DNA from: an uncultured Planctomycetales bacterium
GTDB lineage: Bacteria > Omnitrophota > Gorgyraeia > Aquiviventales > Aquiviventaceae
Direction of reading: 5' to 3'
Length of the DNA stretch: 60,770 nt
Assembly: GCA_964373175.1 (NCBI GenBank)
Contig: CAYJTP010000003.1
Location: 12,177 to 72,946 of the forward strand
Both the position numbers and the translations under genes were made by a program. The notes under the pieces are model-generated. The model saw nothing but the letters and a program-made list of their open reading frames with translations. It had not been told where the DNA came from and searched no databases. Each line of letters starts with the position of its first letter. Positions within the stretch are counted from its first letter, which is position 1. Below, piece after piece: positions 1,440-56,404 of this stretch.

Positions 1440-1447
1440 GACGATGA

Positions 1448-1557
1448 TCCCACCACCTGTTTGTGGTCTGCCTTTGGCAGACCAGACAATCCTCTTGAGG
1501 CGGTCTGAGGTGGTGGGGTTGTTCGCCGGTCTTCGACCGGCCAAACAGGTGGTGGGA
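1448..1557 (+). repeat. IR-bracketed start-codon cassette, copy 1 (before nrdR)
   Basis: Arms TCCCACCACCTG 1448-1459 and CAGGTGGTGGGA 1546-1557. Pairing extends inward (TTTG/CAAA). ATG at 1557. Confidence 0.85.
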
Positions 1558-2018
1558 TGAAGTGCCCCTTCTGCGGTCATCAGGAAGATAAAGTCGTCGA
1601 CTCGCGCGCCAGCGCCGAGGGGCTGGCCATCCGCCGGCGACGCGAGTGCCTGTCCTGTCGCAAGCGGTTCACGACCTATGAGCATGTCGAAGAGCAGCGA
1701 CTCATGGTCATCAAGAAGGACGGCCGTCGCGAGCCGTTTGACCGCAAGAAGCTGCTGAATGGTCTTGTGAAAGCGTGCGAGAAACGTCCGATCAGTATGG
1801 ACCGGCTTGAGCAAGTCGTGGAGGAGATTGAGCAAGATCTCTCCAGGAACTTTGAGCGGGAGGTTCCCTCACAAGAGATCGGGGAGCGCGTCATGAAGCG
1901 GCTCCACGCCCTGGATCCGGTGGCCTACGTCCGGTTTGCCTCGGTCTATCGCGAGTTCAAGGACGCTGAGCAGTTCATGCGCGAGCTCAAAGACCTCATC
2001 AGCCAGAAAGCGAGGTAA
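1557..2018 (+). CDS. nrdR: transcriptional repressor NrdR
   Basis: 153 aa. N-terminal zinc ribbon (CPFCG...CLSCRKRF) followed by an ATP-cone. The ATG lies in the right arm of IR cassette 1. Confidence 0.95.
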
Positions 2019-6392: not shown

Positions 6393-6445
6393 GAAACCAG
6401 AAACCAGTAACCAGATGTTTTCTCTGGTTTCTGGTTACTGGTTAC
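6393..6445. repeat. word-repeat hairpin (AACCAG/CTGGTT family)
   Basis: GAAACCAGAAACCAGTAACCAGA-TGTTTTC-TCTGGTTTCTGGTTACTGGTTAC, just after the hisG stop. Related words at 48844-48872 and 51517-51566. Confidence 0.8.
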
Positions 6446-6472
6446 GTGGTTCGCATTGAGAGGAGGCGCAAC

Positions 6473-6562: not shown

Positions 6563-6683
6563 TCGCCGTGTCTGAGACGGCGAGTCGATCAGGGGAGTGG
6601 CCCGTCCCGGTCCTTCCAGGGGCGGGAGCGGTTGCACAGCGAGCCCTGAACCCAACAGGGGGAAGGGCGGCCCATGGCGATGG

Positions 6684-8177
6684 ATGGTGACCTCGACGAG
6701 ACTCATCTGGCTGCTGCTTTGCACACTCGGGGTGGGGGGATGCGCCCACGTGCCGTTGCAGAGCAGCCAAGAAGCCAAACGGAATGTGTACGCCTTGTAC
6801 ATGCGCGGGTTGATGCTCGAACGCTCGGCCCATCTGTCCGATGCGCTCGAGACGTATCAGCAGGCCCTGGAGCATGATTATGAGTCACCCTCCCTGTACG
6901 TGCGGATTGGCGCGACCTACGTCAAACTCGGGGAGATTCACCAAGCCCTCAAGTCGTTTCAGCGGGCGCTGACCCTCGATCCCTCTCACCGCGATGCCTT
7001 GCGGTGGGTGGCGATGCTCCACACCTCGCAGGGCGAGCTCGATGAGGCGATCCGCGCGTATGAACGCCTGATCGAGCAAGAGCCCACGGATCGCTTTGTG
7101 CTCAGCACCCTCGCCGATCTCTATGTGCTTCAAGGGCAACTCGAGCAGGCGGCCCACCTCTACGAGCGGCTCATCAAGGAATATGGCTCCTCGTCCCAGT
7201 TGCGCTTCAACCTGGGGGTGCTCTACGGGCGGCTCGGCCAGTACTCCTCAGCCATCCAGGAACTGTCCCGTGCGATGGAGCTGGCGCCCGACTCCATTGA
7301 GATTCGGGTCGTCTTGGGCCTGACCTACGAACTGAACAACCAACTGGACAAGGCCGCCGCGCATTTCGAAGACGCCATCCGCTTGGATCCCTTGAACCCA
7401 CGGCTCTACCTGCATGCTGCCCGGGTCTACGCGAGCCAGCAGCGAACCAAGGAAGCCATCGACGAATACGAGACGGCCTTGGACTTAGCCCCGAATGATC
7501 TCGAGGCACTGTTCGGGCTGGTGCGGTTATGGCTCGTGGACAAACAGTATGCCAAAGCTCAACACGTGATTGGCGAAAAACTTCCGAACGCCGCCCAACC
7601 GGCAGACCTCTATCTGATGCTCGGGGTGGTGTATCGCGAGGCCGACGCCCCGGCGGAAGCGCTGCGGGCGTTTGAACGAGCCGTGGCCCTCAACGGGACG
7701 TCCGCCCAAGCGCACTTCTACCTTGGGGCCCAGCTCGACCGCCTCCAGCGCAAACAGGAAGCCCGGCAGGAACTACGGCGTACGATTGAGCTCGATCCGA
7801 ACCACGCGGATGCGCTCAACTATTTAGGGTACCTCGATGCGGAGGCAGGCGTGAATCTCAAAGAAGCCAAGGCCTTGATCGAACGGGCCGTGGCGCTGGA
7901 TCCTGACAACGGGGCCTATCTCGATAGTCTGGGATGGGTCTCCTACCAACTGGGTGAGCTAGACGAGGCGATCCGCCAGCTTGAGCGCGCCGCCACACTC
8001 TTGGACACGGATCCGACGGTCTTCGATCATCTCGGGGATGCGTATCGGCGGCAAGGCAACCTCAAGAAGGCCCAAGCCGCCTGGGAGAACGCGCTGCGCC
8101 TCGATGCGAGCCTTGAGGTCGTGAAACACAAGCTGGAATCCCTCTTGCATCGGGACGTGATGGCGATTGCCCCATGA
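6684..8177 (+). CDS. TPR-repeat lipoprotein
   Basis: ATG 6684 gives a signal peptide with lipobox-like LGVGGC. More than 10 TPR-like repeats follow. The stop TGA sits in the left flank of IR cassette 2. Confidence 0.8.
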   Translation: MVTSTRLIWLLLCTLGVGGCAHVPLQSSQEAKRNVYALYMRGLMLERSAHLSDALETYQQALEHDYESPSLYVRIGATYVKLGEIHQALKSFQRALTLDPSHRDALRWVAMLHTSQGELDEAIRAYERLIEQEPTDRFVLSTLADLYVLQGQLEQAAHLYERLIKEYGSSSQLRFNLGVLYGRLGQYSSAIQELSRAMELAPDSIEIRVVLGLTYELNNQLDKAAAHFEDAIRLDPLNPRLYLHAARVYASQQRTKEAIDEYETALDLAPNDLEALFGLVRLWLVDKQYAKAQHVIGEKLPNAAQPADLYLMLGVVYREADAPAEALRAFERAVALNGTSAQAHFYLGAQLDRLQRKQEARQELRRTIELDPNHADALNYLGYLDAEAGVNLKEAKALIERAVALDPDNGAYLDSLGWVSYQLGELDEAIRQLERAATLLDTDPTVFDHLGDAYRRQGNLKKAQAAWENALRLDASLEVVKHKLESLLHRDVMAIAP

Positions 8178-8314
8178 TCCCCCCACCTGATGCGGGCTGC
8201 CGAAGGCAGCCCATGCAACGTGGAGTGATGGATGAGAGTGTTGAAATTCGGGTGGGACAACATCTGGTGTGTTGCATTGTCCCGCCTTCGGCGGGACAGC
8301 ATCAGGTGGTGGGA
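8178..8314 (+). repeat. IR-bracketed start-codon cassette, copy 2 (before transketolase N)
   Basis: Arms TCCCCCCACCTG 8178-8189 and CAGGTGGTGGGA 8303-8314. The upstream stop TGA is at 8175-8177. Confidence 0.85.
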
Positions 8315-9144
8315 TGACGAAACCTGATCTCACCGCGTTGCGGCGGCTGGCCGTTGAGTTACGGCAGGACATCTTGACGATGATTGCCAAGGCAGGCAGC
8401 GGCCATCCCGGCGGATCGCTCTCGATGGTGGAACTTCTCATCGGCCTGTACTGGTACGCGCTGCGGCATGATCCCAAGCATCCGTCGTGGCCGGGGCGGG
8501 ATCTCTTCTTGCTGTCGAAAGGTCATGGATGTCCGGCGCTCTATGCGGTCTTGGCGCATCGAGGCTATTTTCCGAAAGAGGAGCTCATGACGCTCCGACG
8601 CTATCCGACCCGATTGCAGGGGCACCCGGAAAAAGATTCGCCGCCAGGGGTGGAGATCGCCTCGGGGTCGCTTGGTCAAGGGCTCTCAATGGCCAACGGG
8701 ATTGCGCTCGCCGATCGCTTGGACGGCCGCACGCGGCGGATCTACTGTCTGCTGGGCGATGGGGAAATTCAGGAAGGCCAAGTGTGGGAAGCGGCGATGA
8801 CCGCCCACCATCACAAGCTGGAGAGCGTGTGCGCGATCATCGATGCGAATCAGTTGCAGCAAAACGGTCCGGTGAAAGAGATTCAAGATATCGAGCCGCT
8901 CGCCGATAAGTGGCGGGCGTTTGGGTGGCATGCGATTGAGATCGACGGCCATGACCTCGTCCGCGTGATCGACGCCTACGATGAGGCGAAGACCATCCGT
9001 GGCAAGCCTCAGGTGATTATCGCGCGAACGGTGAAGGGCAAAGGGGTTTCGTTTATGGAACTCAATCCCGCCTGGCATGGGGTGGCTCCCAAACCCGATG
9101 AATTGGACAAGGCGTTGAATGAGCTGCGGATGGTGAAGGTCTAA
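8314..9144 (+). CDS. transketolase, N-terminal (TPP-binding) subunit
   Basis: GSGHPGGSLS and GDGEIQEGQVWEA motifs. Start taken at the ATG in the right arm of IR cassette 2 (MTKPDLTALRRLA). Confidence 0.9.
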   Translation: MTKPDLTALRRLAVELRQDILTMIAKAGSGHPGGSLSMVELLIGLYWYALRHDPKHPSWPGRDLFLLSKGHGCPALYAVLAHRGYFPKEELMTLRRYPTRLQGHPEKDSPPGVEIASGSLGQGLSMANGIALADRLDGRTRRIYCLLGDGEIQEGQVWEAAMTAHHHKLESVCAIIDANQLQQNGPVKEIQDIEPLADKWRAFGWHAIEIDGHDLVRVIDAYDEAKTIRGKPQVIIARTVKGKGVSFMELNPAWHGVAPKPDELDKALNELRMVKV

Positions 9145-16128: not shown

Positions 16129-16141
16129 CGGGGATGGATGA

Positions 16142-16297
16142 TCCCACCACCTGTCGCCGGTGGCACTTCATGGAGAGGGCTCAATGGTCGATTGCGTTTG
16201 TGCGCCACATGAACCACGTCACGCCACCGTGGCCGGTGAGCAGTTTTCAGGGGGCGGCCAGGGCTCGCGGAACGCGAGCCTGCGCCAGGTGGTGGGA
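16142..16297 (+). repeat. IR-bracketed start-codon cassette, copy 3 (before pth)
   Basis: Arms at 16142-16153 and 16286-16297. ATG at 16297. Confidence 0.85.
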
Positions 16298-16902
16298 TGA
16301 AACTCATCGTGGGCCTTGGCAATGTCGGGCAGCCCTATGAGGGTACGCGACACAATGTGGGTTTCGAGGTGGTCCGGCGACTGGCCAGAACACGCCGGGT
16401 TCAGTGGAAACCGAAATTCAAAGCGCGTGAAACGATCGCACTGTCTGGGGATTGGAAACCCGGCCACGCCGTGGTTCGGCTGTTCCTCCCGCAACTCATG
16501 ATGAATCAGTCGGGGGAAGCGTTGGCCACTGCCGCTGAACGACCGGTCCTTCCTCAGGATATGCTGATTGTGTGTGATGACGTCAATCTCCCCTTGGGGA
16601 CCCTGCGCTTGAGGCCAAAAGGGAGCGACGGGGGGCACCATGGGTTGGCTTCCTGTCTTGAGGTCCTGGGGACCCACGCGGTGGCTCGCTTGCGGATTGG
16701 CGTTGGGGCAATGCCCCTGCCGAGAGACCTGACCGAGTTTGTCTTATCGCCATTCGACGCGCAGGAGCGTCCGACGGTCCATCAGATGATCGAACAGGCT
16801 GCGGTGGCGTGTGAACTGTGGGCGACACAAGGGATTGAGGTGGCGATGAATCGTGTGAACCCCGCCAAATGGCGGGATCATGGGGGCGGGGTGAACGCGT
16901 AA
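16297..16902 (+). CDS. pth: peptidyl-tRNA hydrolase
   Basis: MKLIVGLGNVG..Y..TRHNVGF. The ATG lies in the right arm of IR cassette 3. Confidence 0.93.
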   Translation: MKLIVGLGNVGQPYEGTRHNVGFEVVRRLARTRRVQWKPKFKARETIALSGDWKPGHAVVRLFLPQLMMNQSGEALATAAERPVLPQDMLIVCDDVNLPLGTLRLRPKGSDGGHHGLASCLEVLGTHAVARLRIGVGAMPLPRDLTEFVLSPFDAQERPTVHQMIEQAAVACELWATQGIEVAMNRVNPAKWRDHGGGVNA

Positions 16903-17654: not shown

Positions 17655-17782
17655 GAGTCCGTTTCAAAACCTCCGCTCGTTCAGGGCTCTGGGTTCAGGG
17701 CTCAGGGTAACGGCCCTGAGCCCGCAGCCAAGAGCCGAGGAGGTCGCGTGGCCCATCAGCAGAGCATGAGGAGCTTGAGCAG

Positions 17783-18624: not shown

Positions 18625-18732
18625 ATTGCGGATTGTGCCCGCCTGCCCCACGACCCAAGGAGCGGGCAGGGAATGCGGATTGCGGATTGAATAATCTCTC
18701 AAATCCAAAATCGACAATCCAAAATCCGCAAT
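18625..18732. repeat. word-repeat hairpin (GCGGATT/AATCCGC family)
   Basis: Lies in the rplI-dnaB spacer. Same word family as 54676-54742. Confidence 0.75.
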
Positions 18733-24413: not shown

Positions 24414-25239
24414 CGCGGACGTGAACGCCAAGGCTCGGGTGCGGCGCCGCGCCTCTCGAGGCACGGCGGTTCATCCGATGGCGCTTGTGGATCCCCAGGC
24501 CGTCTTGGAGGCTGGGGTCGACGTGGGTCCGTATGCGGTGGTCGGTCCCCAGGTGCGGATTGGTTCCCGGACTCGGATCGGCGCGCACTGTGTGATCGAG
24601 GGAGACACTACCATCGGCTCCGACTGCCAGCTTTTTACGGGCGCGGTCATCGGGAGCATTCCTCAAGATCTCAAGTATACCGGCGAGAAAACCCAGCTGA
24701 TCATCGGGGACCGCAACCGGATCCGCGAGTACGTGACGATCAATTCAGGCACCAAAGGGGGCGGCGGCAAAACCGTCATTGGCTCGGACTGTTTGCTCAT
24801 GGCGTATTCCCATGTCGCCCACGACTGTTTCATCGGGAACCAGGTGGTCATCGCCAATAGCGCGGCCCTGGCCGGGCATATCCTCGTGGAAGATGCCGCC
24901 GTCATCGGCGGGTTGGTGGGGATTCATCAGTTTGTGCGTGTGGGGACCCTCGCCATCATCGGGGGTCTGTCGCGGGTGGTCCAAGACGTCCCCCCGTACG
25001 CCACGTGCGTCGGCTACCCCGCCAAGGTCTTTGGGGTGAACACCGAGGGGTTGCGTCGGGCCGGGATCTCGAAAGACGCCAAGGAGCATCTGCGCAAGGC
25101 CTTCCGCGTGCTGTTCCACTCCGGCCTGTTGATGAGCCACGCCATCGATCAGGTGGCGCAGGACGCCAATCACTGCCCAGAAGTCGACCATCTCCTGAGC
25201 TTCATTCGACAGTCGAAACGCGGCGTCTGCCGCGCCTAG
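24406..25239 (+). CDS. lpxA: acyl-ACP--UDP-GlcNAc O-acyltransferase
   Basis: VHPMALVDPQAVLEAGVDVGPYAVVG hexapeptide beta-helix followed by a helical C-terminal domain. Overlaps the lpxC/fabZ stop. Confidence 0.9.
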   Translation: MRDADVNAKARVRRRASRGTAVHPMALVDPQAVLEAGVDVGPYAVVGPQVRIGSRTRIGAHCVIEGDTTIGSDCQLFTGAVIGSIPQDLKYTGEKTQLIIGDRNRIREYVTINSGTKGGGGKTVIGSDCLLMAYSHVAHDCFIGNQVVIANSAALAGHILVEDAAVIGGLVGIHQFVRVGTLAIIGGLSRVVQDVPPYATCVGYPAKVFGVNTEGLRRAGISKDAKEHLRKAFRVLFHSGLLMSHAIDQVAQDANHCPEVDHLLSFIRQSKRGVCRA

Positions 25240-25274
25240 ACCCGCTCAACCAACAACAGCCTGACCCCAAGCCC

Positions 25275-26114
25275 ATGCCTGATGCGTGTGCGGTGATCGC
25301 GGGAGCTGGCTCGTTTCCCCGTCATGTGGCGCAGGAAGCCAGACGCCAAGGCCTGACGGTGGTGGGGATCGGGCTTCAAGGCTGGGTCGATCGTGACTTT
25401 GCTCAGCATGTCGATGTGTATGAGGAGATCGCGATTGGGCAACTGAAACGCCTCATCGACCGGCTGGATGCTCACCACGTGCGCCAAGCCGTGATGGCGG
25501 GGAAAGTCACGAAAGAAATCTTGTTTGATTCGCGCGTCCGCTTCGATCCTGAGGCCCTGGGCATTGTGACGCATGTGAAGGAGTTTTCCGTCAACGCGCT
25601 GTTGGGGGCGCTGGCTGCGCGTCTTGCCAAGGCCGGGATCACGTTGCTGGATTCCTCGACGTTCCTCAAGCCCAACCTCTGCCCGAAGGGCGTGTTGACC
25701 AGGCGGGAACCGACGCATGAGGAGCAGGAAGACATCCGCCTGGGAATGCAGGCCGCTCGGCACCTCGCGCAGTTGGATATCGGCCAGACCGTCGTCGTGA
25801 AGCATCGGGTCGTCGTGGCGGTCGAGGCCTTGGAAGGGACCGACGCGGCCATTCAACGAGCCGGCCACCTGGCCGGGCGGGACCTCGTCGTCATCAAGAT
25901 GGCCTCCCCCACCCAAGACATGCGCTTCGATCTGCCCATCCTTGGTCCCCAGACCATCGCGGTGGCCATCGCCTCGGGGGTTCGGTGTCTGGCGGTGGAA
26001 GCCGCAAAGACGCTGCTGCTTGAACGAGACGCGCTGATCGCCCACGCCGACGACGCTAACCTCAGTCTCGTGGGCGTTGAAATCCCTGATCCGGTGCACA
26101 CGGATCGGACATGA
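25275..26114 (+). CDS. lpxI: LpxI family (DUF1009) UDP-2,3-diacylglucosamine hydrolase
   Basis: AVIAGAGSFP...DIGQTVVVKHRVVVAVEALEGTDAAIQRAG. The stop TGA sits in the left flank of IR cassette 4. Confidence 0.78.
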   Translation: MPDACAVIAGAGSFPRHVAQEARRQGLTVVGIGLQGWVDRDFAQHVDVYEEIAIGQLKRLIDRLDAHHVRQAVMAGKVTKEILFDSRVRFDPEALGIVTHVKEFSVNALLGALAARLAKAGITLLDSSTFLKPNLCPKGVLTRREPTHEEQEDIRLGMQAARHLAQLDIGQTVVVKHRVVVAVEALEGTDAAIQRAGHLAGRDLVVIKMASPTQDMRFDLPILGPQTIAVAIASGVRCLAVEAAKTLLLERDALIAHADDANLSLVGVEIPDPVHTDRT

Positions 26115-26256
26115 TCCCCCCACCTAGCTTCCCCCCCGGCTGTCGCCGGCGTCGGGCCGGGGGGGCCGACCTCGTGGGAAGCGAAGTATTGATTCGCCTT
26201 CCCGCCGTTGGCGGGATCCGCCAGAGGCGCGATCGGCGAATAGACAGGTGGGGGGA
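26115..26256 (+). repeat. IR-bracketed start-codon cassette, copy 4 (before rhomboid)
   Basis: Arms TCCCCCCACCTA 26115-26126 and CAGGTGGGGGGA 26245-26256. The upstream stop TGA is at 26112-26114. Confidence 0.8.
26131..26165. repeat. GC palindrome shared with 36593-36624 (opposite orientation)
   Basis: CCCCCCCGGCTGTCGCCGGCGTCGGGCCGGGGGGG. Its reverse complement matches 36593-36624 with 1 mismatch over 32 nt. Confidence 0.8.
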
Positions 26257-26936
26257 TGATCCCGGTTCGTGATACCATTCCCTCCAACCGCACCGCGTGG
26301 GTGGTTCGCGCCGTGCTCCTGGCCAACGTTGGGCTGTTCTTCCTGGAGTTGCGGCAAGGCGCTGCGGTTGAGACGATGCTCTATCGGTTTGGGGTCGTGC
26401 CGGCCGACTGGGAGTTGAGTACCCTCCACGACGTCTTCCAATGGCCTCGGCTGATCGGGACGCTGATCACCTCGCAGTTTCTGCATGGTGGCTTGCTGCA
26501 TTTAGGATCCAATATGCTCTATCTCTGGATCTTCGGGGACAACGTTGAGGATCTGTTAGGGCACGGGCGCTTCCTGTTGTTGTATCTCGGCAGCGGCATC
26601 GCGGCGGGGCTGGTCCAGTTGGCGATGCAGCCGCAAGCGACGGTGCCGATGATTGGCGCAAGCGGGGCGATCGCCGGCGTGTTGGGGGCGTATTTCCTGT
26701 TGTTCCCGTTTGCCCGGATCGTCACGCTCATTCCCTGGTTTTTCTTCTGGCAGTTCGTGGAGCTCCCGGCGTTTGTGTTTTTAGGATTCTGGTTTGTCCT
26801 CCAGTGGCTCCAAGGGATGACGACGATTGGCCAGATGGTCCATCTGGGCGGAGTGGCGTGGTGGGCCCATGTCGGGGGATTCGTTGGCGGACTGGTCTTT
26901 GCGGTGAATCTGCGCCCTCGCCGACGCTATTTTTAA
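26256..26936 (+). CDS. rhomboid family intramembrane serine protease
   Basis: FLHGGLLHLGSNMLYLWIFG and GASGAIAGVLGAY motifs, 6 TM helices. The ATG lies in the right arm of IR cassette 4. Confidence 0.85.
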   Translation: MIPVRDTIPSNRTAWVVRAVLLANVGLFFLELRQGAAVETMLYRFGVVPADWELSTLHDVFQWPRLIGTLITSQFLHGGLLHLGSNMLYLWIFGDNVEDLLGHGRFLLLYLGSGIAAGLVQLAMQPQATVPMIGASGAIAGVLGAYFLLFPFARIVTLIPWFFFWQFVELPAFVFLGFWFVLQWLQGMTTIGQMVHLGGVAWWAHVGGFVGGLVFAVNLRPRRRYF

Positions 26937-31214: not shown

Positions 31215-31302
31215 TATACGGGCACCACAGGCGTTCAGCAAGTCTTCCAACTGTTTTCCACGTGGCATCTTGGGTATACTTGACGCGTTGGAGGGATCAT
31301 GA

Positions 31303-31451
31303 TCCCACCACCTGTGCCGGCCCCGCCTCTCGGCGGGGCCCGAATGCCAACACAGGTTCGTGAGGTGTGGATCATGGGTCAGCCGCTGCATTCGTCGCGG
31401 CGGTGATGTCGGCGAGACTCCGCAAGCCGCCGTAAGGCGCAGGTGGTGGGA
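31303..31451 (+). repeat. IR-bracketed start-codon cassette, copy 5 (before glpK)
   Basis: Arms at 31303-31314 and 31440-31451. ATG at 31451. Confidence 0.85.
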
Positions 31452-32935
31452 TGATTCTGGCCATTGACCAAGGCACAACCGGAACCAGCGTGTTGGCGTT
31501 CGACCGCAAGGGTCGGGTCATCGCCCAGGGCTATGAGGAACTGCCCCAATATTTTCCCAAGCCGGGCTGGGTGGAACATGATCCAGAGGACATGCTGGCT
31601 GTGACCCTGCGGGTGATCAAGCGGACGCTTGACCGCGCCCATCTTCGCGCCACACAGCTTCTCGCTATCGGGATCACGAACCAGCGCGAGACGACCGTGC
31701 TCTGGGATCGGCGGACCGGACGGTCCGTGGCCAAGGCAATCGTGTGGCAGTGCCGGCGGACCGCCCCGATGTGTGAACGCTTGAAACGCCGTGGCCTTGA
31801 ACCGACAGTGCGTCGCAAGACGGGTCTGGTCCTCGATGCCTATTTTTCAGGCACCAAGGTGCGCTGGTTCCTCGACAATCTCCGAGGACTTGCCGCACGA
31901 GCGAAGCGGGGCGAGATTGCCTTCGGCACCGTCGACAGCTGGCTGCTCTGGCACTTGACCGGCGGCCGCATCCATGCCACGGACTACACGAATGCCTCGC
32001 GCACCCTGCTGTATAACATCCGCGCCTTGAGCTGGGATGACGACCTGCTGCGAATGTTCGCCATCCCGCGCACGCTCCTTCCAGCCGTGAAGTCGTCCAG
32101 CGGGCTCTTCGGGACCACGACGCGCATCGGGCCCCTTGCTGCAGGGATCCCGATTGCCGGAATCGCGGGTGACCAACAAGCTTCCCTGGTGGGCCACGGA
32201 TGCCTTGAGGCGGGCGATGCCAAAAACACCTACGGCACGGGATGTTTTCTCCTGCTGCAGACGGGCGCTCGCGTCGTGCTGAGTCGGCACGGGCTCATCA
32301 CGACCTTAACCTACGGGGGAAGGGAGTCGCCAAGCTATGCCTTGGAAGGCAGCGTCTTTATTGCCGGTGCCGCGATTCAATGGTTGCGGGACGGCCTGAA
32401 GGTGATCAAGACCGCCGCCGAAACGGAAGGAATCGCCAAGGGCGTCAAGAGTACCGGCGGGGTCTATGTGGTTCCTGCATTTGTGGGACTGGGCGCGCCC
32501 TATTGGGACATGCACGCGCGAGGAGGGATTGTCGGCCTCACCAGGGGGACGACTCGAGATGTGCTGGTGCGCTCGACGTTGGAGTCGCTCGCCTATCAGA
32601 CCCGTGACGTCGTGGAGGCGATGCAGCGCGATAGCGGCATCCGTCTCAAGCGACTTCAGGTCGACGGGGGCGCAGCCCGCAATAACTGGCTCATGCAGTT
32701 TCAGGCGGATCTGTTGGGGATTGACGTCGTGCGGCCCGCGCTGGTGGCCAATACCGCCAAGGGCGCGGCGTTGTTGGCCGGGATCGCCATGGGGTGGTGG
32801 GATCCAAGACGGCTGTCGACCTTGATGGGTGCGCCTGAGCGGATCTTTCGTCCACGGATGAACGCCCAAGAGCGCCAACGCCTGTACGCAGGGTGGCACG
32901 AGGCGGTTCAGCGGATGCGAACGCAGCGTCGGTAA
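31451..32935 (+). CDS. glpK: glycerol kinase
   Basis: MILAIDQGTTGTS...GITNQRETTVLWD. The ATG lies in the right arm of IR cassette 5. Confidence 0.95.
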   Translation: MILAIDQGTTGTSVLAFDRKGRVIAQGYEELPQYFPKPGWVEHDPEDMLAVTLRVIKRTLDRAHLRATQLLAIGITNQRETTVLWDRRTGRSVAKAIVWQCRRTAPMCERLKRRGLEPTVRRKTGLVLDAYFSGTKVRWFLDNLRGLAARAKRGEIAFGTVDSWLLWHLTGGRIHATDYTNASRTLLYNIRALSWDDDLLRMFAIPRTLLPAVKSSSGLFGTTTRIGPLAAGIPIAGIAGDQQASLVGHGCLEAGDAKNTYGTGCFLLLQTGARVVLSRHGLITTLTYGGRESPSYALEGSVFIAGAAIQWLRDGLKVIKTAAETEGIAKGVKSTGGVYVVPAFVGLGAPYWDMHARGGIVGLTRGTTRDVLVRSTLESLAYQTRDVVEAMQRDSGIRLKRLQVDGGAARNNWLMQFQADLLGIDVVRPALVANTAKGAALLAGIAMGWWDPRRLSTLMGAPERIFRPRMNAQERQRLYAGWHEAVQRMRTQRR

Positions 32936-36701: not shown

Positions 36702-36801
36702 GCAGTCCATAGTCAAGAGTCCATAGTCGATAGTCAGACGAAACAACCAGGACTGCAACTCGTTGTTGGCTATGGACTACAGACTATGGACGATCGACTG
36801 C
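36702..36801. repeat. word-repeat hairpin (CCATAGTC/GACTATGG family)
   Basis: GTCCATAGTCAAGAGTCCATAGTCGATAGTC ... GGCTATGGACTACAGACTATGGAC. Confidence 0.75.
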
Positions 36802-45294: not shown

Positions 45295-45313
45295 CTCTCG
45301 CCTTCGGCAGCCC
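45220..45313. repeat. 94-bp perfect direct repeat, copy A
   Basis: Identical to 47536-47629. Covers 19 nt of leader plus codons 1-25 of the short PilX-like gene. Confidence 0.95.
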
Positions 45314-45331
45314 AACCACCCTTCGGGTGGC

Positions 45332-45380
45332 GTTTACAGTTTACCGTGTACCGTTCACCGTACACCGTTCACGGTACACC
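45332..45380. repeat. word-repeat element (ACCGTACAC family)
   Basis: GTTTACAGTTTACCGTGTACCGTTCACCGTACACCGTTCACGGTACACC, in the leader of the short PilX-like gene. Confidence 0.7.
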
Positions 45381-45393
45381 GCCCGTTGGGTTT

Positions 45394-45425
45394 GTGGCTT
45401 TGCGCCATACGGTTGCCCGTATGTT
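45394..45425 (-). promoter_or_regulatory. conserved 32-nt leader element, copy A (short PilX-like gene)
   Basis: Identical to 47740-47771. On the minus-strand RNA it contains CAUACGG-GCAA-CCGUAUG (7-bp stem, GNRA loop). Confidence 0.5.
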
Positions 45426-45492
45426 GCCTTTCTCGTGTGCGAGCCTTCCTTGGAAATAGCAAGGGAACAGATGATTCGTGGGACGGCGTTCA

Positions 45493-47610
45493 TTAACAGT
45501 GCATCGGCACGCCGTTCTCGTCGAGCTGTGGACCCTTTCCACCACCACAGCGACCCCCACTGCTACTGCTACTGCCAACACCTCCACTACTACTTCCCCC
45601 ACGGTCTTCACCCCTGTCGGTACCCCCTTGGACCAAGAAGCGCCCCAGGCGATACCACAGCGTGAAGATTTCTGGCTGTGCGGTGTTCACCGAGAACTTG
45701 GACCCGCCCAGACTCTCATCATAGAACACATGCGAGTTCGTCGAGACGTCCGCTTGCTTGGCCACGACCGCCCCGATCATCGCATGGTAGGGTCCAATCT
45801 TGATGTTGGTCTTTGGCGCATAGACCACCGCGGCGGTCACCCCTGCTGAAAACTGGACGCTTGCCGAGGGCGAGGTCACAAAGATGCGCAGGTTCTTTGG
45901 CGCATACTGATGGAGCGGGGTATGGAACGGTTCCTGCGCGCTGCCGAGTTGTTTCTGGCCATAGAGCTCGCCCCCATGCTGGGAGATATTGCCGGTGATG
46001 TAGAGGTCAACGGGTCCCTGCGTCCAGAGGACTGGCGAGACCTGGTCGGTTTTGTAGGTCGTCTGCGTGACGTACTCGGTTTTTGTCTGATAGGTCACCA
46101 CGTCTTTGTAGGTGGTTTTTGCGACCATCTTCGTCTGACACTGGTTTGTCGTCGAGCACTGGTTTGTCGTCGAGCACTGGTTTGTCGTCGAGCACTGGTT
46201 TGTCGTCGAGCACTGCTGGGTCGTCACCGGGGTGCAGGTCGTGACGGGGTTGCAGGTTGTCACCGGGGTGCAGGTCGTCGAGCACTGGTTTGTCGTTGTG
46301 CAGGGGTTCCCGGCTGCATAGGCCGGTTCTCCAAAGAGCAAGCAGAGCATCCAGTTCTCGGCATCCGGTTGCCTGTCCCACAAAAACGCGTCACCACCAC
46401 CCCCGCCCCCGTCTGAGGGACAGACCGTCACGGGTGTGCACTTCGTGGTGCATTGGTTCGTCGTCGAGCACTGGTTCGTCGTCGAGCACTGCTGGGTCGT
46501 CACCGGGGCGCAGGTCTGAACGGGCGTACAGGTCTGAACGGGCGTACAGGTCTGGACCGGCGTGCAGGTGGTCACATCTTGGCAGGTCGTGACCGGCTCC
46601 TGCGTCGTGACCGGCTCCTGCGTCGTGACCGCCACCTGCGTGGTGACAGGGACCTGGGTCGTGACCGGCACCTGGATGGTGGCGGTGTCCATGGACAGGT
46701 TGCTGGCTTTGTAGACACCTGGCGCAAGCGATCGCGTCGTCCCATTGAGCACGATGGCTCCAAGATTCTGTGCAGTGCTTGGAGGCACGATGGAAGTTGG
46801 GAGGAGCGCCTGCTGCTCGAGCTCCCCCACCGTCGCTGCTCCCTGCGAGTTTTCGAAGGTACTGCTCCTGTCAACGGTGACCGCCGTCGTGGGAACGCCC
46901 TTGGGGATCAGGATATCGCCCTTGACGGTGGAACTATTCGCAACTTTGATCAGATCGGTTTGGTCCTTCGCCGTGGTGGCGAGGTTCCCGTAGCGTCTCG
47001 TCTCATATGATTGGGGCAACTTGAATTTGTTGTTTTCATATCCCCCGAGGAGCGCTGACGCAATGGATCCGAAGGTTGAGCTGTTCACGCTGATCTTGTC
47101 GGTTGACAGGAGCGCGTTGGTGAGTCGCAGGTTACTTGACGGGATCGTCACAAGCATCGTGATGTCCTGGGCGATCGTGTTGCTGACCCCTGTGGCGATG
47201 ACGTTGTATTGGCCTGTTTCGGTGAGGCAGATGTCGTAGCTGCTGACCGTGGGACTGCTCTGATTCGATGCGAGCGTGTCGGCGGCTACGGGGATGGGAG
47301 TCGCTGAGGTGGTGTTCGACGCCAGCAGACTGGTCTTTGTAATGCAGTAGTTTGTGGCGAGTGCTGGGGGATTGACCTTGAGGGTGTACAGCGATTCATC
47401 GAGGGCCGCTTCGGCTTGCCAGAACGCCCGGTTTTGCTCCAGGGCAATCTGGGCATGCCGGACCTCCATGGAGCTTCTGGTGAACATGGCGGTGGTCAGG
47501 AGGGTAAACCAGAACACGAGAAGATAGCTATAGAGGAGGAGGGCAAACCCGCCCTCCGACTGCAGCAGGGAACAGCGGTGTGTTCGAGCCTGACAGGTTG
47601 TGTGCGTCAT
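45493..47610 (-). CDS. PilX N-terminal domain protein, long form with Cys/Thr hexapeptide repeat stalk
   Basis: Same leader and helix as the short form. Repeats (VTTQxP)n, (TPVQTC)3 and (QCSTTN)n, followed by a C-terminal beta-rich body. Confidence 0.6.
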   Translation of the reverse strand: MTHTTCQARTHRCSLLQSEGGFALLLYSYLLVFWFTLLTTAMFTRSSMEVRHAQIALEQNRAFWQAEAALDESLYTLKVNPPALATNYCITKTSLLASNTTSATPIPVAADTLASNQSSPTVSSYDICLTETGQYNVIATGVSNTIAQDITMLVTIPSSNLRLTNALLSTDKISVNSSTFGSIASALLGGYENNKFKLPQSYETRRYGNLATTAKDQTDLIKVANSSTVKGDILIPKGVPTTAVTVDRSSTFENSQGAATVGELEQQALLPTSIVPPSTAQNLGAIVLNGTTRSLAPGVYKASNLSMDTATIQVPVTTQVPVTTQVAVTTQEPVTTQEPVTTCQDVTTCTPVQTCTPVQTCTPVQTCAPVTTQQCSTTNQCSTTNQCTTKCTPVTVCPSDGGGGGGDAFLWDRQPDAENWMLCLLFGEPAYAAGNPCTTTNQCSTTCTPVTTCNPVTTCTPVTTQQCSTTNQCSTTNQCSTTNQCSTTNQCQTKMVAKTTYKDVVTYQTKTEYVTQTTYKTDQVSPVLWTQGPVDLYITGNISQHGGELYGQKQLGSAQEPFHTPLHQYAPKNLRIFVTSPSASVQFSAGVTAAVVYAPKTNIKIGPYHAMIGAVVAKQADVSTNSHVFYDESLGGSKFSVNTAQPEIFTLWYRLGRFLVQGGTDRGEDRGGSSSGGVGSSSSSGGRCGGGKGPQLDENGVPMHC
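46139..46210. repeat. perfect tandem repeat, 4 x 18 bp (CACTGGTTTGTCGTCGAG)
   Basis: Encodes (QCSTTN)4 on the minus strand. Degenerate 18-bp-period arrays continue to about 46680. Confidence 0.9.
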
Positions 47611-47629
47611 CTCTCGCCTTCGGCAGCCC
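47536..47629. repeat. 94-bp perfect direct repeat, copy B
   Basis: Identical to 45220-45313. Covers 19 nt of leader plus codons 1-25 of the long PilX-like gene. Confidence 0.95.
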
Positions 47630-47739
47630 TGCTACCCCACACCCAGCGCGAACCCCTTTCGTCGTACCAACACCGTCGCGTTCAGCGCATGCATTCCGCC
47701 ATGATCACCGCGATGAATGCAGCGCTGGGTGTGGGGCCA

Positions 47740-47771
47740 GTGGCTTTGCGCCATACGGTTGCCCGTATGTT
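47740..47771 (-). promoter_or_regulatory. conserved 32-nt leader element, copy B (long PilX-like gene)
   Basis: Identical to 45394-45425. Lies downstream of the predicted promoter, so it falls in the 5' leader. Confidence 0.5.
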
Positions 47772-47806
47772 ACCCTTTCGGAGCGAGCCGTTCTTTGGTC
47801 ATTACG

Positions 47807-53076: not shown

Positions 53077-53138
53077 AAGTCCCGCGCTTTGTCTTGTGGC
53101 GCGAGGCCAACCTTGTTAGAATATCGGCTCATCGATGG

Positions 53139-53279
53139 TCCCACCACCTGGCTGTCGCGGCTTCACGCGATAACCAACCGCGCAGGATGCCGCGACCGAG
53201 GCGGGTGGTGGGAGGCAAGAGGATTGAGCACGCCCGCCGCGGGTCCCGCCCGCAGGCGGGACACAACCAGGTGGTGGGA
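53139..53279 (+). repeat. IR-bracketed start-codon cassette, copy 6 (before ATP-grasp gene)
   Basis: Arms at 53139-53150 and 53268-53279. Flanked by ATGG on both sides. Confidence 0.85.
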
Positions 53280-54670
53280 TGGACTACGTCCCTGAGCATC
53301 TCCTCCGCCACCGATTGAGGCGTCTCAGCCGTCGGGATCTGACGGAGCGCTTGCAGGCGGCGCGGGCGCTCAGTACGGTGCGCGGCTTGCGGTTCCTCGA
53401 TGATCGCAGCCGCCCCCGGACGATTGACCTGGCGTTGGTGCCCTGGCTGCTCACCCCAGCGCAGATCGCGTTCTTTCGCCAGGTGGCCCAGCTCCTGGCC
53501 GATGCGCTCCTGCGGCTTCCCCATCTCTATGCCCAGCAGGCGCGCGTTCGCCAGCTCCTGTTCTTCGATGACACCCACGCATCCTGGGTGCGCCTGGCTT
53601 CCCACCCACGCAGCCGTCCGCTGGCGGTGATGGGACGGCTCGATTCCACCGCGACATTCTCCCACGCGGGATGGCGCAGGGCCTTTGCGATGCTTGAGCC
53701 AAATGCGGTGGGGGTGGGCGGGGTGCACTATGCGCCGACGGCCTGTTCAGTGGTGCTCGATGTGTTGGGGGATGTCCTTGAGCAGGCCTTTCCTGCCTAC
53801 CGAGTCGTTCCCACCCCTGATCCCCGCCAGTTGTTGATGGAGGAACTCACGGGGGTGAGCCGACGGCTTGGTCGGCGCATCCGTTCGGTTGCGCTCATCG
53901 AAAACGCGGACTATACCACCGGGACGGATGAGTTTGGCCAGTTGGCCCGGTATTTCTGCCAACACGGGTTGCACGCCCTCGTCGCTGATCCGCGGGAATT
54001 CCGTCTGTCGCACGGCCGGCTTGTGGCCCAGGGGCGCGAGATCGATCTCCTCTATCGGGACTGCGAACTGAGCGAGTTCGTGGAGATGGAGGCTGGCGGG
54101 CGTCGCTTGACGGCGCTGCGCCACGCCATTCAGGACGGCCGTCTGATCTCGGGGCTGTTGTGGGAGTTCGACCACAAGTCCAGTTGGGAGCTGTTTACGG
54201 ATCCTGTGTTTGGGCGCTACTTTTCTTTGCGCCAGCGACGATTCTTCCGCGCGCATCTGCCCTGGACCCGGCTCGTTCGTGAGGCGGTGGTCTCTGACCC
54301 AACGGGGAAGCGGACCGACCTCATCCGCTACATCAGGCGACACCGGGAGCATCTTGTGTTAAAACCGAACACCCTCTACGGGGGCCAAGGCGTCGTCGTA
54401 GGATGCACCGCGACGCCGGCGCTGTGGGACCGAACCATCGCCAAAGCCCTGCGGGGCTCCACCCACTACGTCGTCCAGCAACTGGCTCGCGTCAGGACTC
54501 ATCGGTTTCCCATTCTCGATCATGGGAGACCGCGAGAAGTAGAGCGTCAGGTCGTCTCTGGATTCTTCTTTAACTCGTCTCACGTCGGGCTGGTGGGGCG
54601 CTTCTCAAGCGATCCCGTCGTGAATGTGTCCCGAGGGGGCGGATTGCTCGCGGCCCTCATGGTCCAATGA
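53279..54670 (+). CDS. circularly permuted ATP-grasp / glutathionylspermidine-synthase-like protein
   Basis: 463 aa. ...HLVLKPNTLYGGQGVVVG... and a C-terminal NVSRGGG pattern recalled from the CP-ATP-grasp type 2 family. The ATG lies in the right arm of IR cassette 6. Confidence 0.5.
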   Translation: MDYVPEHLLRHRLRRLSRRDLTERLQAARALSTVRGLRFLDDRSRPRTIDLALVPWLLTPAQIAFFRQVAQLLADALLRLPHLYAQQARVRQLLFFDDTHASWVRLASHPRSRPLAVMGRLDSTATFSHAGWRRAFAMLEPNAVGVGGVHYAPTACSVVLDVLGDVLEQAFPAYRVVPTPDPRQLLMEELTGVSRRLGRRIRSVALIENADYTTGTDEFGQLARYFCQHGLHALVADPREFRLSHGRLVAQGREIDLLYRDCELSEFVEMEAGGRRLTALRHAIQDGRLISGLLWEFDHKSSWELFTDPVFGRYFSLRQRRFFRAHLPWTRLVREAVVSDPTGKRTDLIRYIRRHREHLVLKPNTLYGGQGVVVGCTATPALWDRTIAKALRGSTHYVVQQLARVRTHRFPILDHGRPREVERQVVSGFFFNSSHVGLVGRFSSDPVVNVSRGGGLLAALMVQ

Positions 54671-54675
54671 AAGGT

Positions 54676-54742
54676 GGATTGCGGATTTGGGATTGCGGAT
54701 TTGCGATTGTGTGTAAATCCGAAATCCGCAATCCGAAATTCC
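54676..54742. repeat. word-repeat hairpin (GCGGATT family)
   Basis: GGATTGCGGATTTGGGATTGCGGATTTGCGATTG-TGTGT-AAATCCGAAATCCGCAATCCGAAATTCC. Confidence 0.8.
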
Positions 54743-55578: not shown

Positions 55579-55654
55579 AAAGACAGACCTCAGACAACAG
55601 ACATCAGTTTAGCGATCTGTAGTCTGAAGTCTGAGGTCTGACGTCTGAAGTCTG
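55579..55654. repeat. word-repeat hairpin (CAGAC/GTCTG family) abutting the MBL gene ATG
   Basis: AAAGACAGACCTCAGACAACAGACATCAG ... CTGTAGTCTGAAGTCTGAGGTCTGACGTCTGAAGTCTG followed directly by ATG 55655. Confidence 0.8.
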
Positions 55655-56404
55655 ATGAAAATCGTCATCCTCGGCAGTGGCACCGGCGTCCCCGTCAAGA
55701 CGCGTGGCTACGCCGGGATCCATGTTCGCGTGGCGGGCGAGCACCTCCTCCTCGACGCTGGCCCAGGGACCTTGAAGCAGCTTGTCAGGCTTGGGGTGAC
55801 CTATGTGGACCTTGACCGGATTTTCCTCACCCATTACCATCCGGATCACTGCCTCGACCTCGTCTCGATCCTGTTTGCGATGCGCCTGCCCGAGCCCGCC
55901 CGGACAACACCCCTCATCATCTATGGTCCGCGGGGACTGCGCACGCTGTACCGACGTCTCAACACGGCGTTTCATCACTGGATCGCCCCGCGCACCTACC
56001 GCTTGACGCTGCGCGAACTCGGCGACACGACGTTGCGGCTCGGCGGCTATACGGTGCGGACCAAACGGATGAACCACTCAACCGCGGCTCTAGGCTATCG
56101 GCTCGAGGCTCAAGGCAAAAGCGTCACCTATTCGGGTGATACGGATGTGTGTCCAGAAATTGTCCAGCTTGGCCACAAGGCGGACCTCCTCATCCTGGAG
56201 TGTTCCATGACCGATGAGCGCAAAGTGCGCGGCCACCTCACGCCAACCGAATGCGGCCAGATCGCGGCTCACGCCCGCTGCCGTCGTCTGGTTCTCACCC
56301 ACTTCTATCCAGTCTTCCAGGGTTATCACATCCGCCAACGGGTGCGCCGGTCGTTTCATGGGCCTGTGACCCTCGCCACAGATTTTGCCTCGTTTCGTCT
56401 CTAG
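55655..56404 (+). CDS. MBL-fold metallo-hydrolase (short RNase Z/ElaC-like)
   Basis: MKIVILGSGTG and THYHPDHCLD motifs. Confidence 0.8.
   Translation: MKIVILGSGTGVPVKTRGYAGIHVRVAGEHLLLDAGPGTLKQLVRLGVTYVDLDRIFLTHYHPDHCLDLVSILFAMRLPEPARTTPLIIYGPRGLRTLYRRLNTAFHHWIAPRTYRLTLRELGDTTLRLGGYTVRTKRMNHSTAALGYRLEAQGKSVTYSGDTDVCPEIVQLGHKADLLILECSMTDERKVRGHLTPTECGQIAAHARCRRLVLTHFYPVFQGYHIRQRVRRSFHGPVTLATDFASFRL

Follow-up and report, generated by a model that had tools for sequence, protein, structure and literature searches.

Miniature Transposon-Like Repeats with a Predicted Translational Relay at Start Codons in Omnitrophota

Introduction

Mycobacterial interspersed repetitive units (MIRUs; Supply et al. 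1997, as summarised in PMC12548453 and PMC3184786) are apparently mobile repeats that insert at start codons and carry an internal open reading frame (ORF) coupled to the next gene at −4 spacing, with minimal effect on expression (PMC12548453). They are described as having both filled and empty sites, direct repeats of four nucleotides, terminal inverted repeats that are imperfect, and further, GC-rich inverted repeats inside, with ORFs that overlap the adjacent genes (PMC3184786, Delihas). Termination-reinitiation coupling at ATGA overlaps, and the 'delivery' of ribosomes by leader ORFs, have been reviewed (PMC12548453). Here we describe a short repeat that occurs six times in a 60,770 nt stretch of DNA (hereafter, the window) from an uncultured bacterium placed in the phylum Omnitrophota (assembly GCA_964373175.1, contig CAYJTP010000003.1, positions 12,177 to 72,946), each time ending on the start codon of a gene. 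From comparison of sequences, these cassettes are probably copies of a non-autonomous element resembling MITEs (miniature inverted-repeat transposable elements), tolerated at or targeted to stop/start junctions, where they would act as a translational relay.

The insertion site is the TGA of an ATGA, either the 4-nt stop/start overlap of two operon genes or a start codon with A as its next base. Since the element ends in A and the TGA is duplicated, the upstream stop is kept, the downstream ATG is rebuilt, and ATGA stands on both sides of the insert.

In many respects the element resembles a MIRU: both are short GC-rich repeats in operons, with filled and empty sites, a short direct repeat, terminal and internal inverted repeats, an internal ORF that overlaps the flanking stop and start codons, and tandem copies. 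It differs in belonging to another phylum, in being longer (100-160 nt, compared to about 40-100 nt for MIRUs), in having perfect, invariant 12-nt terminal repeats that carry a Shine-Dalgarno (SD) sequence, in duplicating 3 nt, and in having a 16-bp closing stem around three hairpins, with extremely diverse interiors. Likened by these described features, the Omnitrophota element would work as a MIRU does; sequence homology between the two is not assumed. The element is not a new class, and belongs with the known start-codon-inserting, translationally coupled repeats and MITEs. The original prediction, made from the letters of the window, had named no described element class with such geometry, and in this it was mistaken: MIRUs have been described as mobile, start-codon-inserting repeats whose internal ORF is coupled to the gene through a −4 overlap (PMC12548453, PMC3184786).

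Six Copies of the Repeat in the Window

The six pairs of 12-nt arms reported in the original prediction are all present and well above chance. The arm motif (two mismatches or fewer) occurs 23 times in the window compared to 7.6 expected, a number reached in none of 100 shuffles, and the gapped two-arm pattern occurs five times compared to 0.00 expected. The density is about one copy per 10 kb, or about one gene in ten. The copies and their neighbouring genes are as follows.

Copy 1: 1448..1557 (+), 110 nt, perfect 12-nt arms at 1448-1459 and 1546-1557; direct repeats TGA 1445-1447 and TGA 1558-1560; precedes nrdR (1557-2018).
Copy 2: 8178..8314 (+), 137 nt; TGA repeats at 8175-8177 and 8315-8317; upstream, a TPR gene (6597-8177) whose stop is the left TGA; downstream, a transketolase-N gene (8314-9144) whose start is the right-arm A plus TG.
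Copy 3: 16142..16297 (+), 156 nt, 0 mod 3; TGA repeats at 16139-16141 and 16298-16300; precedes pth (16297-16902).
Copy 4: 26115..26256 (+), 142 nt, 1 mod 3, variant arms; TGA repeats at 26112-26114 (the stop of lpxI, 25005-26114) and 26257-26259; precedes a rhomboid gene (26256-26936).
Copy 5: 31303..31451 (+), 149 nt, 2 mod 3; TGA repeats at 31300-31302 and 31452-31454; precedes a FGGY/GlpK-like gene (31451-32935).
Copy 6: 53139..53279 (+), 141 nt, 0 mod 3; TGG repeats at 53136-53138 and 53280-53282; precedes a gene for 463 aa (53279-54670).

The arms TCCCACCACCTG and CAGGTGGTGGGA are perfect in four of the six copies. The left arm of copy 2 is TCCCCCCACCTG, with one mismatch, and the arms of copy 4 are TCCCCCCACCTA and CAGGTGGGGGGA, where an A-to-C change at position 5 is compensated by T-to-G and position 12 is an A.C mismatch. 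The left arm is preceded by ATGA in every copy (ATGG in copy 6) and the right arm is followed by TGA (TGG in copy 6). As originally predicted, the right arm in all six cases ends in the A of the ATG that opens a long plus-strand ORF, and AGGTG lies 5 nt upstream of this ATG. It is not the sole SD-like sequence, as had been claimed: copy 3 keeps GGGGA, and copy 5 GGAGGG, upstream of the left ATG.

Five of the predicted gene labels are supported by Pfam matches in the downstream genes (NrdR, transketolase N, Pth, rhomboid and a FGGY, GlpK-like kinase), but 'ATP-grasp', for the gene at 53279, has only a sub-threshold match (E = 0.003). The profile matches of NrdR, Pth and FGGY begin at residues 1-3, showing that these ATGs are the true starts. 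Upstream, the stop codon of the preceding gene is the left TGA in copies 2 (TPR) and 4 (LpxI).

The interiors had been described as non-homologous. They are indeed unalignable within the window, but copy 5 joins a family of 21 members in other genomes. The hairpin GTCCCGCC-loop-GGCGGGAC reported in copies 2 and 6 is common to both. A third copy of the right arm is found inside copy 1 at 1507..1518 (+) (GAGGTGGTGGGG) and inside copy 6 at 53202-53213 (CGGGTGGTGGGA), 71-75 nt from the left arm; these may offer the left arm another sequence to pair with, or be scars of recombination between tandem copies.

Distribution in Other Genomes

One genome per species was scanned for the two arms with a gap of 105-135 nt, using a pattern without the ATG or the flanks. 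At least 112 matching stretches were found, from about 25 assemblies labelled mostly as Candidatus Omnitrophota or Omnitrophica WOR_2, with some Planctomycetales metagenome-assembled genomes (MAGs) and one Auribacterota. The GC content of these hosts spans 36% to 69%. The window's own genome was absent from the scanned set, and its nearest match is an Omnitrophica WOR_2 MAG with an nrdR gene that is 82% identical. Re-scanning the DNA fetched from the matched genomes (loci given here as L-numbers) produced 131 arm pairs, of which 128 have enough flanking sequence and 116 could be oriented by the duplication. The copies were collected by searching with intact arms, and the conservation of the arms is partly a matter of this ascertainment.

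Hosts of low GC content share the same 12-16-nt arms with AT-rich interiors, i.e., L016, L083 (an Auribacterota MAG, 39% GC), L047 (36% GC), L111 and L098 (46% GC); the arms stay constant across genome compositions and the interior drifts toward that of the host. Single arm pairs with no duplicated flanks, and not at a start codon, are found in a Sphaerochaeta MAG (L024), a Myxococcota MAG (L082) and a Patescibacteria MAG (L088), and could be mis-binned contigs, decayed copies or transfers. Two Logan contigs that are 100% identical to the window (L001 and L002; ERR4904392/ERR4904391) begin at window positions 1493, inside cassette 1, and 1547, in its right arm, indicating that short-read assemblies break at these repeats.

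Target Duplication and Mobility

The 3-nt flanks are identical on both sides in 120 of the 128 copies, and 110 of the flanks are TGA (TCA on the other strand). The rare other flanks change on both sides jointly (TGG/TGG, TAA/TAA, CGA/CGA, TAG/TAG), which points to a staggered cut rather than to a fixed element end lying beside a fixed tetranucleotide. Orthologous sites that are empty in related MAGs hold a single ATGA; filled and empty examples are L045 compared to L056 and L067, L037 to L114, L071 and L011 to L023, and L106 to window copy 4 and L057. The MAFFT alignments of filled and empty sites were partly misaligned, with divergent upstream flanks, and the junctions were therefore read by eye.

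Ten clusters of near-identical interiors were found, each at separate loci of one MAG, which indicates that copying has been recent. Tandem copies share one 3-nt spacer (L029 3136-3293/3297-3436; L022 63-187/191-342). With adjacent copies separated only by the duplicated triplet, their mini-ORFs (described below) would chain via ATGA overlaps. A further tandem lies at L029 4468-4577/4581-, and a tandem junction reads ...GGTGGGATGATCCCACC...

The nrdR site is filled both in the window and in L093, with identical arms and flanks and an unalignable interior, suggesting re-insertion and replacement at the one position. The elements are 100-160 nt long and the mini-ORF is the sole ORF; they contain no transposase gene. 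Exact arms without a partner are either cut off by a contig end or left behind by a deletion, as at L011 1313. The latter (L011 1313-1365) is an internally deleted element that retains the left ATGA and arm plus about 33 nt; its right arm is missing, and it joins the start of an S17-like ribosomal protein gene in frame. In all, the element shows every feature by which a MITE can be judged from sequence, except an identified parent insertion sequence (IS).

Association with Start Codons

The position of the right arm on a start codon, seen in the window, extends to the other genomes: of the 116 oriented copies, 107 stand at the head of an ORF that has 80 codons or more or continues past the contig end. 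In 76 of 116 copies the left TGA is exactly the end of an upstream ORF of 80 codons or more, so the site was formerly an ATGA overlap between operon genes. Immediately 5′ of the TGA, A is found 95 times, G 11 times, C 7 times and T 3 times, and the base 3′ of it shows no bias; this argues that the A reflects the start codon and not a symmetric transposase preference. No transposase target beyond A-TGA was detected around the copies; an apparent upstream periodicity of G matches the codon periodicity of the upstream genes. Among the 12 copies with other flanks, eight are at TAATG, TAAATG, TAGATG or CGATG, 2-3 nt 5′ of the start, and the triplet duplicated in these eight is usually a stop codon.

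By a crude gene model, the window offers about 210 TGA/TCA triplets in intergenic DNA other than the elements themselves, together with 27 TGA stop codons and about 16 ATGA or GTGA starts. All six copies are at starts, for which the naive probability is ~6e-8. Two operon-internal ATGA junctions are occupied in the window compared to five unoccupied candidates, about three of them credible. The bias for start codons is due either to target choice by a putative transposase or to selection against insertions at all other sites.

The Proposed Relay Mini-ORF

Read from the left ATG, the left arm encodes M-I-P-P-P, and every relay ORF begins with these residues. The upstream ORFs (uORFs) of the window copies are:

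Copy 1, relay mini-ORF: 1444..1560 (+), ATG at 1444, 38 codons, stop TGA at 1558-1560 overlapping the nrdR ATG at 1557-1559.
Copy 2, relay mini-ORF: 8174..8317 (+), ATG at 8174, 47 codons (MIPPPDAGC...GQHQVVG), ATGA overlap at both ends.
Copy 3, uORF: ATG at 16138, stops within the element at 16210; relay broken.
Copy 4, uORF: ATG at 26111, overruns the element, stop at 26270.
Copy 5, uORF: internal stop at 31404, despite a length of 2 mod 3.
Copy 6, uORF: from 53135, stop at 53171.

In copies 1 and 2 the frame is open throughout and ends ...Q-V-V-G-stop on the right TGA. Across the genomes, 89 of 116 copies have a length of 2 mod 3 (binomial p = 1.3e-21); they comprise 15 length classes between 101 and 158 nt, and in 84 of them the through-ORF is open to the right-hand TGA. 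A stop codon interrupts the relay frame in 25 of the 116 copies, compared to 66 for the other sense frame and 70 and 60 for the antisense frames (Fisher p ~5e-8 and ~3e-9 for the deficit).

The mini-ORFs have about 35-55 codons. They share only MIPPP and QV(V/G)G, both of which are dictated by the arms, and the peptides between are Arg/Ala/Gly/Pro-rich translations of the GC hairpins. It is translatability that is conserved, rather than a protein. Interiors that are related point the same way with respect to the gene in every case (15 pairs, none opposite), and the asymmetric arm variant (left A, right C) is found 21 times compared to one mirror image.

Three copies with lengths of 0 mod 3 continue in frame into the gene that follows (L076 4159-4299, L085 49-189 and L069 2298-2435), giving a 47-aa N-terminal extension that starts from GTG or CTG at the left flank.

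Predicted Fold and Covariation

The arms pair (at least 10 of 12 positions) in the minimum free energy (MFE) folds of all 116 copies. The mean MFE is -88 kcal/mol, and z-scores average -7.1 over whole elements and -3.3 over interiors taken by themselves; in copy 1 the arms are paired at 12 of 12 positions, at -70 kcal/mol and z = -7.9. The interior consists of two to four GC-rich hairpins, three being enclosed by the closing stem in 73 copies and four in 33. The long-range stem had been put at 12-13 bp, and although its presence is borne out in every MFE fold, its typical length is 16 bp, made up of 12 invariant and four covarying pairs.

The 12-nt arms are invariant but for two variants, and the terminal repeat reaches 16 nt in 74 of 116 copies. 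Covariation between them, for which the original prediction had asked, is seen at position 5 (A-U in 86 copies, C-G in 23, mismatches in 7) and at pairs 13-16. The latter, which lie outside the search pattern, match without exception in 75 of 116 copies, where over 25 different sequences occur, and show 26-49 double changes each among 103 distinct end-pairs; in 90 there is no pairing at position 17. The closing helix has a covariation score of 0.26, compared to 0.08 for shuffles (reached in 0 of 500) and at most 0.065 for slid controls. In the 21-copy 'CGCC' family, which includes window copy 5, hairpins 1 and 3 carry compensatory changes at 10 of 27 predicted pairs. No Rfam family matches the elements, and a scan of the window at gathering thresholds gave one tRNA and two c-di-GMP-I riboswitches, all elsewhere.

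A Proposed Translational Relay and Its Alternatives

The right arm sets AGGUGG 5-7 nt 5′ of the regenerated AUG, complementary to the canonical 3′ end of 16S rRNA. In the mRNA, the arms would form the 16-bp stem, masking both this SD sequence and the AUG. A ribosome that reaches the element from the upstream gene, or one that begins at the original SD and AUG, would translate the mini-ORF and melt the stem, then terminate on the UGA and re-initiate at the overlapping AUG, or else leave the SD freed for a fresh 30S subunit. Judging from the arrangement of these signals, the host gene is probably still translatable after insertion. An insertion that is nearly invisible to the expression of its host gene would explain how copies persist at about one gene in ten. 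The burial of the SD and AUG was a fair prediction, and 'coupling device' a reasonable term for the proposed working of the cassettes; the 3-nt flanking repeat, the left ATG and the mini-ORF had been overlooked, and with them the reading of the cassette as a mobile insertion.

Several observations weigh against a MITE-like relay. No autonomous element or transposase bounded by these ends was found in 8-kb pieces around the matches (114 loci) or in the window, arm pairs spaced 260-4000 nt in this DNA being degenerate and at chance level, and mobilisation would have to be deduced from footprints alone. The interiors are much more diverse than those of typical bacterial MITE families. No through-ORF is present in 32 of 116 copies, including window copies 3-6; in these copies the stem is just as good and the gene downstream is intact. 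The sense strand equals the antisense strand in MFE and G.U content (Wilcoxon p = 0.46), so the conserved pairing may act on DNA (e.g., on an intermediate of transposition) and also on mRNA. Lastly, harmlessness alone does not easily explain the scarcity of copies in intergenic DNA or at TGA stops without an overlapping start.

The stem is not weaker in the broken-relay copies than in those with an intact relay. The retention of stem and gene in these copies indicates that a full relay is favoured and not obligatory. A truncated uORF would still cross the left arm and open the stem, and broken relays may be tolerated for that reason.

A mobile element could also have been exapted and be kept by positive selection in the host, with MIPPP making ~10% of genes sensitive to elongation factor P (EF-P) and polyproline stalling, or with the structure controlling the processing or stability of operon mRNA. 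The arms are perfect where interiors have diverged beyond alignment, in hosts of 36-69% GC, but this is partly a product of the intact-arm search. Likewise MIPPP opens every relay ORF, although the complement of a G-rich SD inevitably reads as PPP in one of the three frames. The high occupancy of ATGA junctions in the window (two compared to five unoccupied candidates, about three credible) and a start-codon bias exceeding what harmlessness predicts would fit such selection; presence and absence varying among close relatives, and the tolerance of broken relay ORFs, do not, and we consider exaptation unlikely.

Similarly improbable in our estimation is an element actively directed to stop/start junctions whose arms have been co-opted, the left arm being an anti-SD mimic that encodes the stalling-prone M-I-P-P-P. 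If this were true, about one gene in ten would be under common translational control, for example through SD unmasking dependent on EF-P or on ribosome supply, and a transposon would have made a genome-wide regulatory layer.

The pairing of the arms in every predicted fold, their covariation and the strongly non-random structure (mean z = -7.1) would also be expected of a non-mobile, cis-regulatory RNA of the host, i.e., a translational gate in which a 12-16-bp stem hides the SD and AUG and opens on a signal, the copies being alike through shared function. Such a gate does not account for flanks that are duplicated and covary, for empty orthologous sites, or for near-identical copies at unrelated genes of one genome. 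The downstream genes have no common function, the interior has no conserved core for a ligand or protein, there is no match in Rfam, and predicted stability shows no bias to the sense strand, all of which make this explanation very unlikely.

We give equally little credence to a derivative of a single-strand transposon (HUH, IS200/IS605 or RAYT type), or an attC-like folded site, inserted 3′ of a fixed ATGA without the staggered cut of a DDE enzyme. Subterminal hairpins, a covarying stem of free sequence, equal stability on both strands, the fixed orientation to ATGA (15 pairs to none; the A.C variant 21 to one mirror image) and the asymmetric target preference (A at -1) are all compatible with this type of insertion, but the joint change of non-TGA flanks marks a true target duplication, perfect terminal inverted repeats are foreign to IS200/IS605, and the attC core motifs (RYYYAAC / GTTRRRY) and a cassette array are absent.

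That the mini-ORFs are ordinary genes for small functional proteins (35-54 aa, MIPPP...QVVG) is extremely unlikely, as the frame is open and its length kept in steps of three but conservation is confined to the five N-terminal and four C-terminal residues dictated by the arms, the interiors are unalignable Arg/Ala/Gly/Pro-rich hairpin translations, and 28% of copies have lost the frame with the element retained.

Comparison with Other Repeats

Like the MITEs of other bacteria (Correia elements, ERIC, RUP and IS-derived types), the element is small, has terminal inverted repeats and a target duplication, lacks a transposase gene, and occurs as dispersed copies with within-genome subfamilies. 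Ordinary MITEs are found anywhere in intergenic DNA, whereas these copies are on the start codon and keep the reading frame, and their interiors are not conserved across the family.

In its predicted working the element resembles synthetic bicistronic designs and leader-ORF coupling, in which a leader ORF holds the SD near its 3′ end, its stop overlaps the AUG, and its translation removes inhibitory structure and delivers ribosomes (PMC12548453). The likeness concerns working and not membership, as the element described here is natural, mobile and repeated. Rickettsia palindromic elements are likewise palindromic mobile repeats that survive by open frames (PMC3184786), and the in-frame fusions at L069, L076 and L085 are comparable; these elements sit within coding regions and join the protein, whereas the usual outcome here is a separate, out-of-frame mini-cistron. 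Neisseria REP2 and the Borrelia upstream repeats also lie directly 5′ of genes and supply a ribosome-binding site (RBS) and ATG (PMC3184786), but they carry promoters and 5′ untranslated regions as well, and terminal inverted repeats, target duplication and a through-ORF are not described for them.

Three other identities were considered and rejected. An integron attC site has an unrelated arm sequence, and these copies are dispersed before housekeeping genes with duplicated flanks. A PATE derived from IS200/IS605, or a REPIN, is inconsistent with perfect terminal repeats and with flanks that covary on both sides. A riboswitch or other curated cis-regulatory RNA is inconsistent with the absence of an Rfam match and of a conserved interior core.

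No published description of the element was found in literature searches on the arm sequence, on Omnitrophota repeats and on MITEs at start codons. If the proposed relay is correct, the element is a clean natural case of a transposon built to leave translation undisturbed: a single 12-nt end supplies the RBS, the complement of that end masks it, and together with a 3-nt duplication it rebuilds stop and start. The logic of MIRUs and of engineered bicistronic designs would then have been repeated independently in an uncultured phylum. The family offers a tractable system for asking whether transposons target start codons or selection filters them, and how far translational coupling tolerates structure of -88 kcal/mol. 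For annotation, gene callers will see spurious 'proteins' of ~35-55 aa, or unexplained operon gaps of 100-160 nt.

Other Features of the Window

Two c-di-GMP-I riboswitch aptamers (Rfam RF01051) flank a long minus-strand ORF (45493-47610), one on each side:

45303-45438 (-): c-di-GMP-I aptamer, 54.6 bits.
47619-47784 (-): c-di-GMP-I aptamer, 49.5 bits.

A second repeat class, separate from the cassettes, consists of intergenic hairpins built from 7-nt units, at 1332-1439, 6393-6452, 17681-17736, 18670-18727, 36704-36799, 54676-54739 and 55584-55655. Each arm of these hairpins is a short tandem array, such as (CAGAAGA)n facing (GTCTTCT)n, or (GGATTTG)n facing (AAATCCG)n; the sequence of the unit differs from site to site and the period is constant at 7. 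One of them lies just 5′ of cassette 1, and similar CAATCCG repeats are found 5′ of the L056 element.

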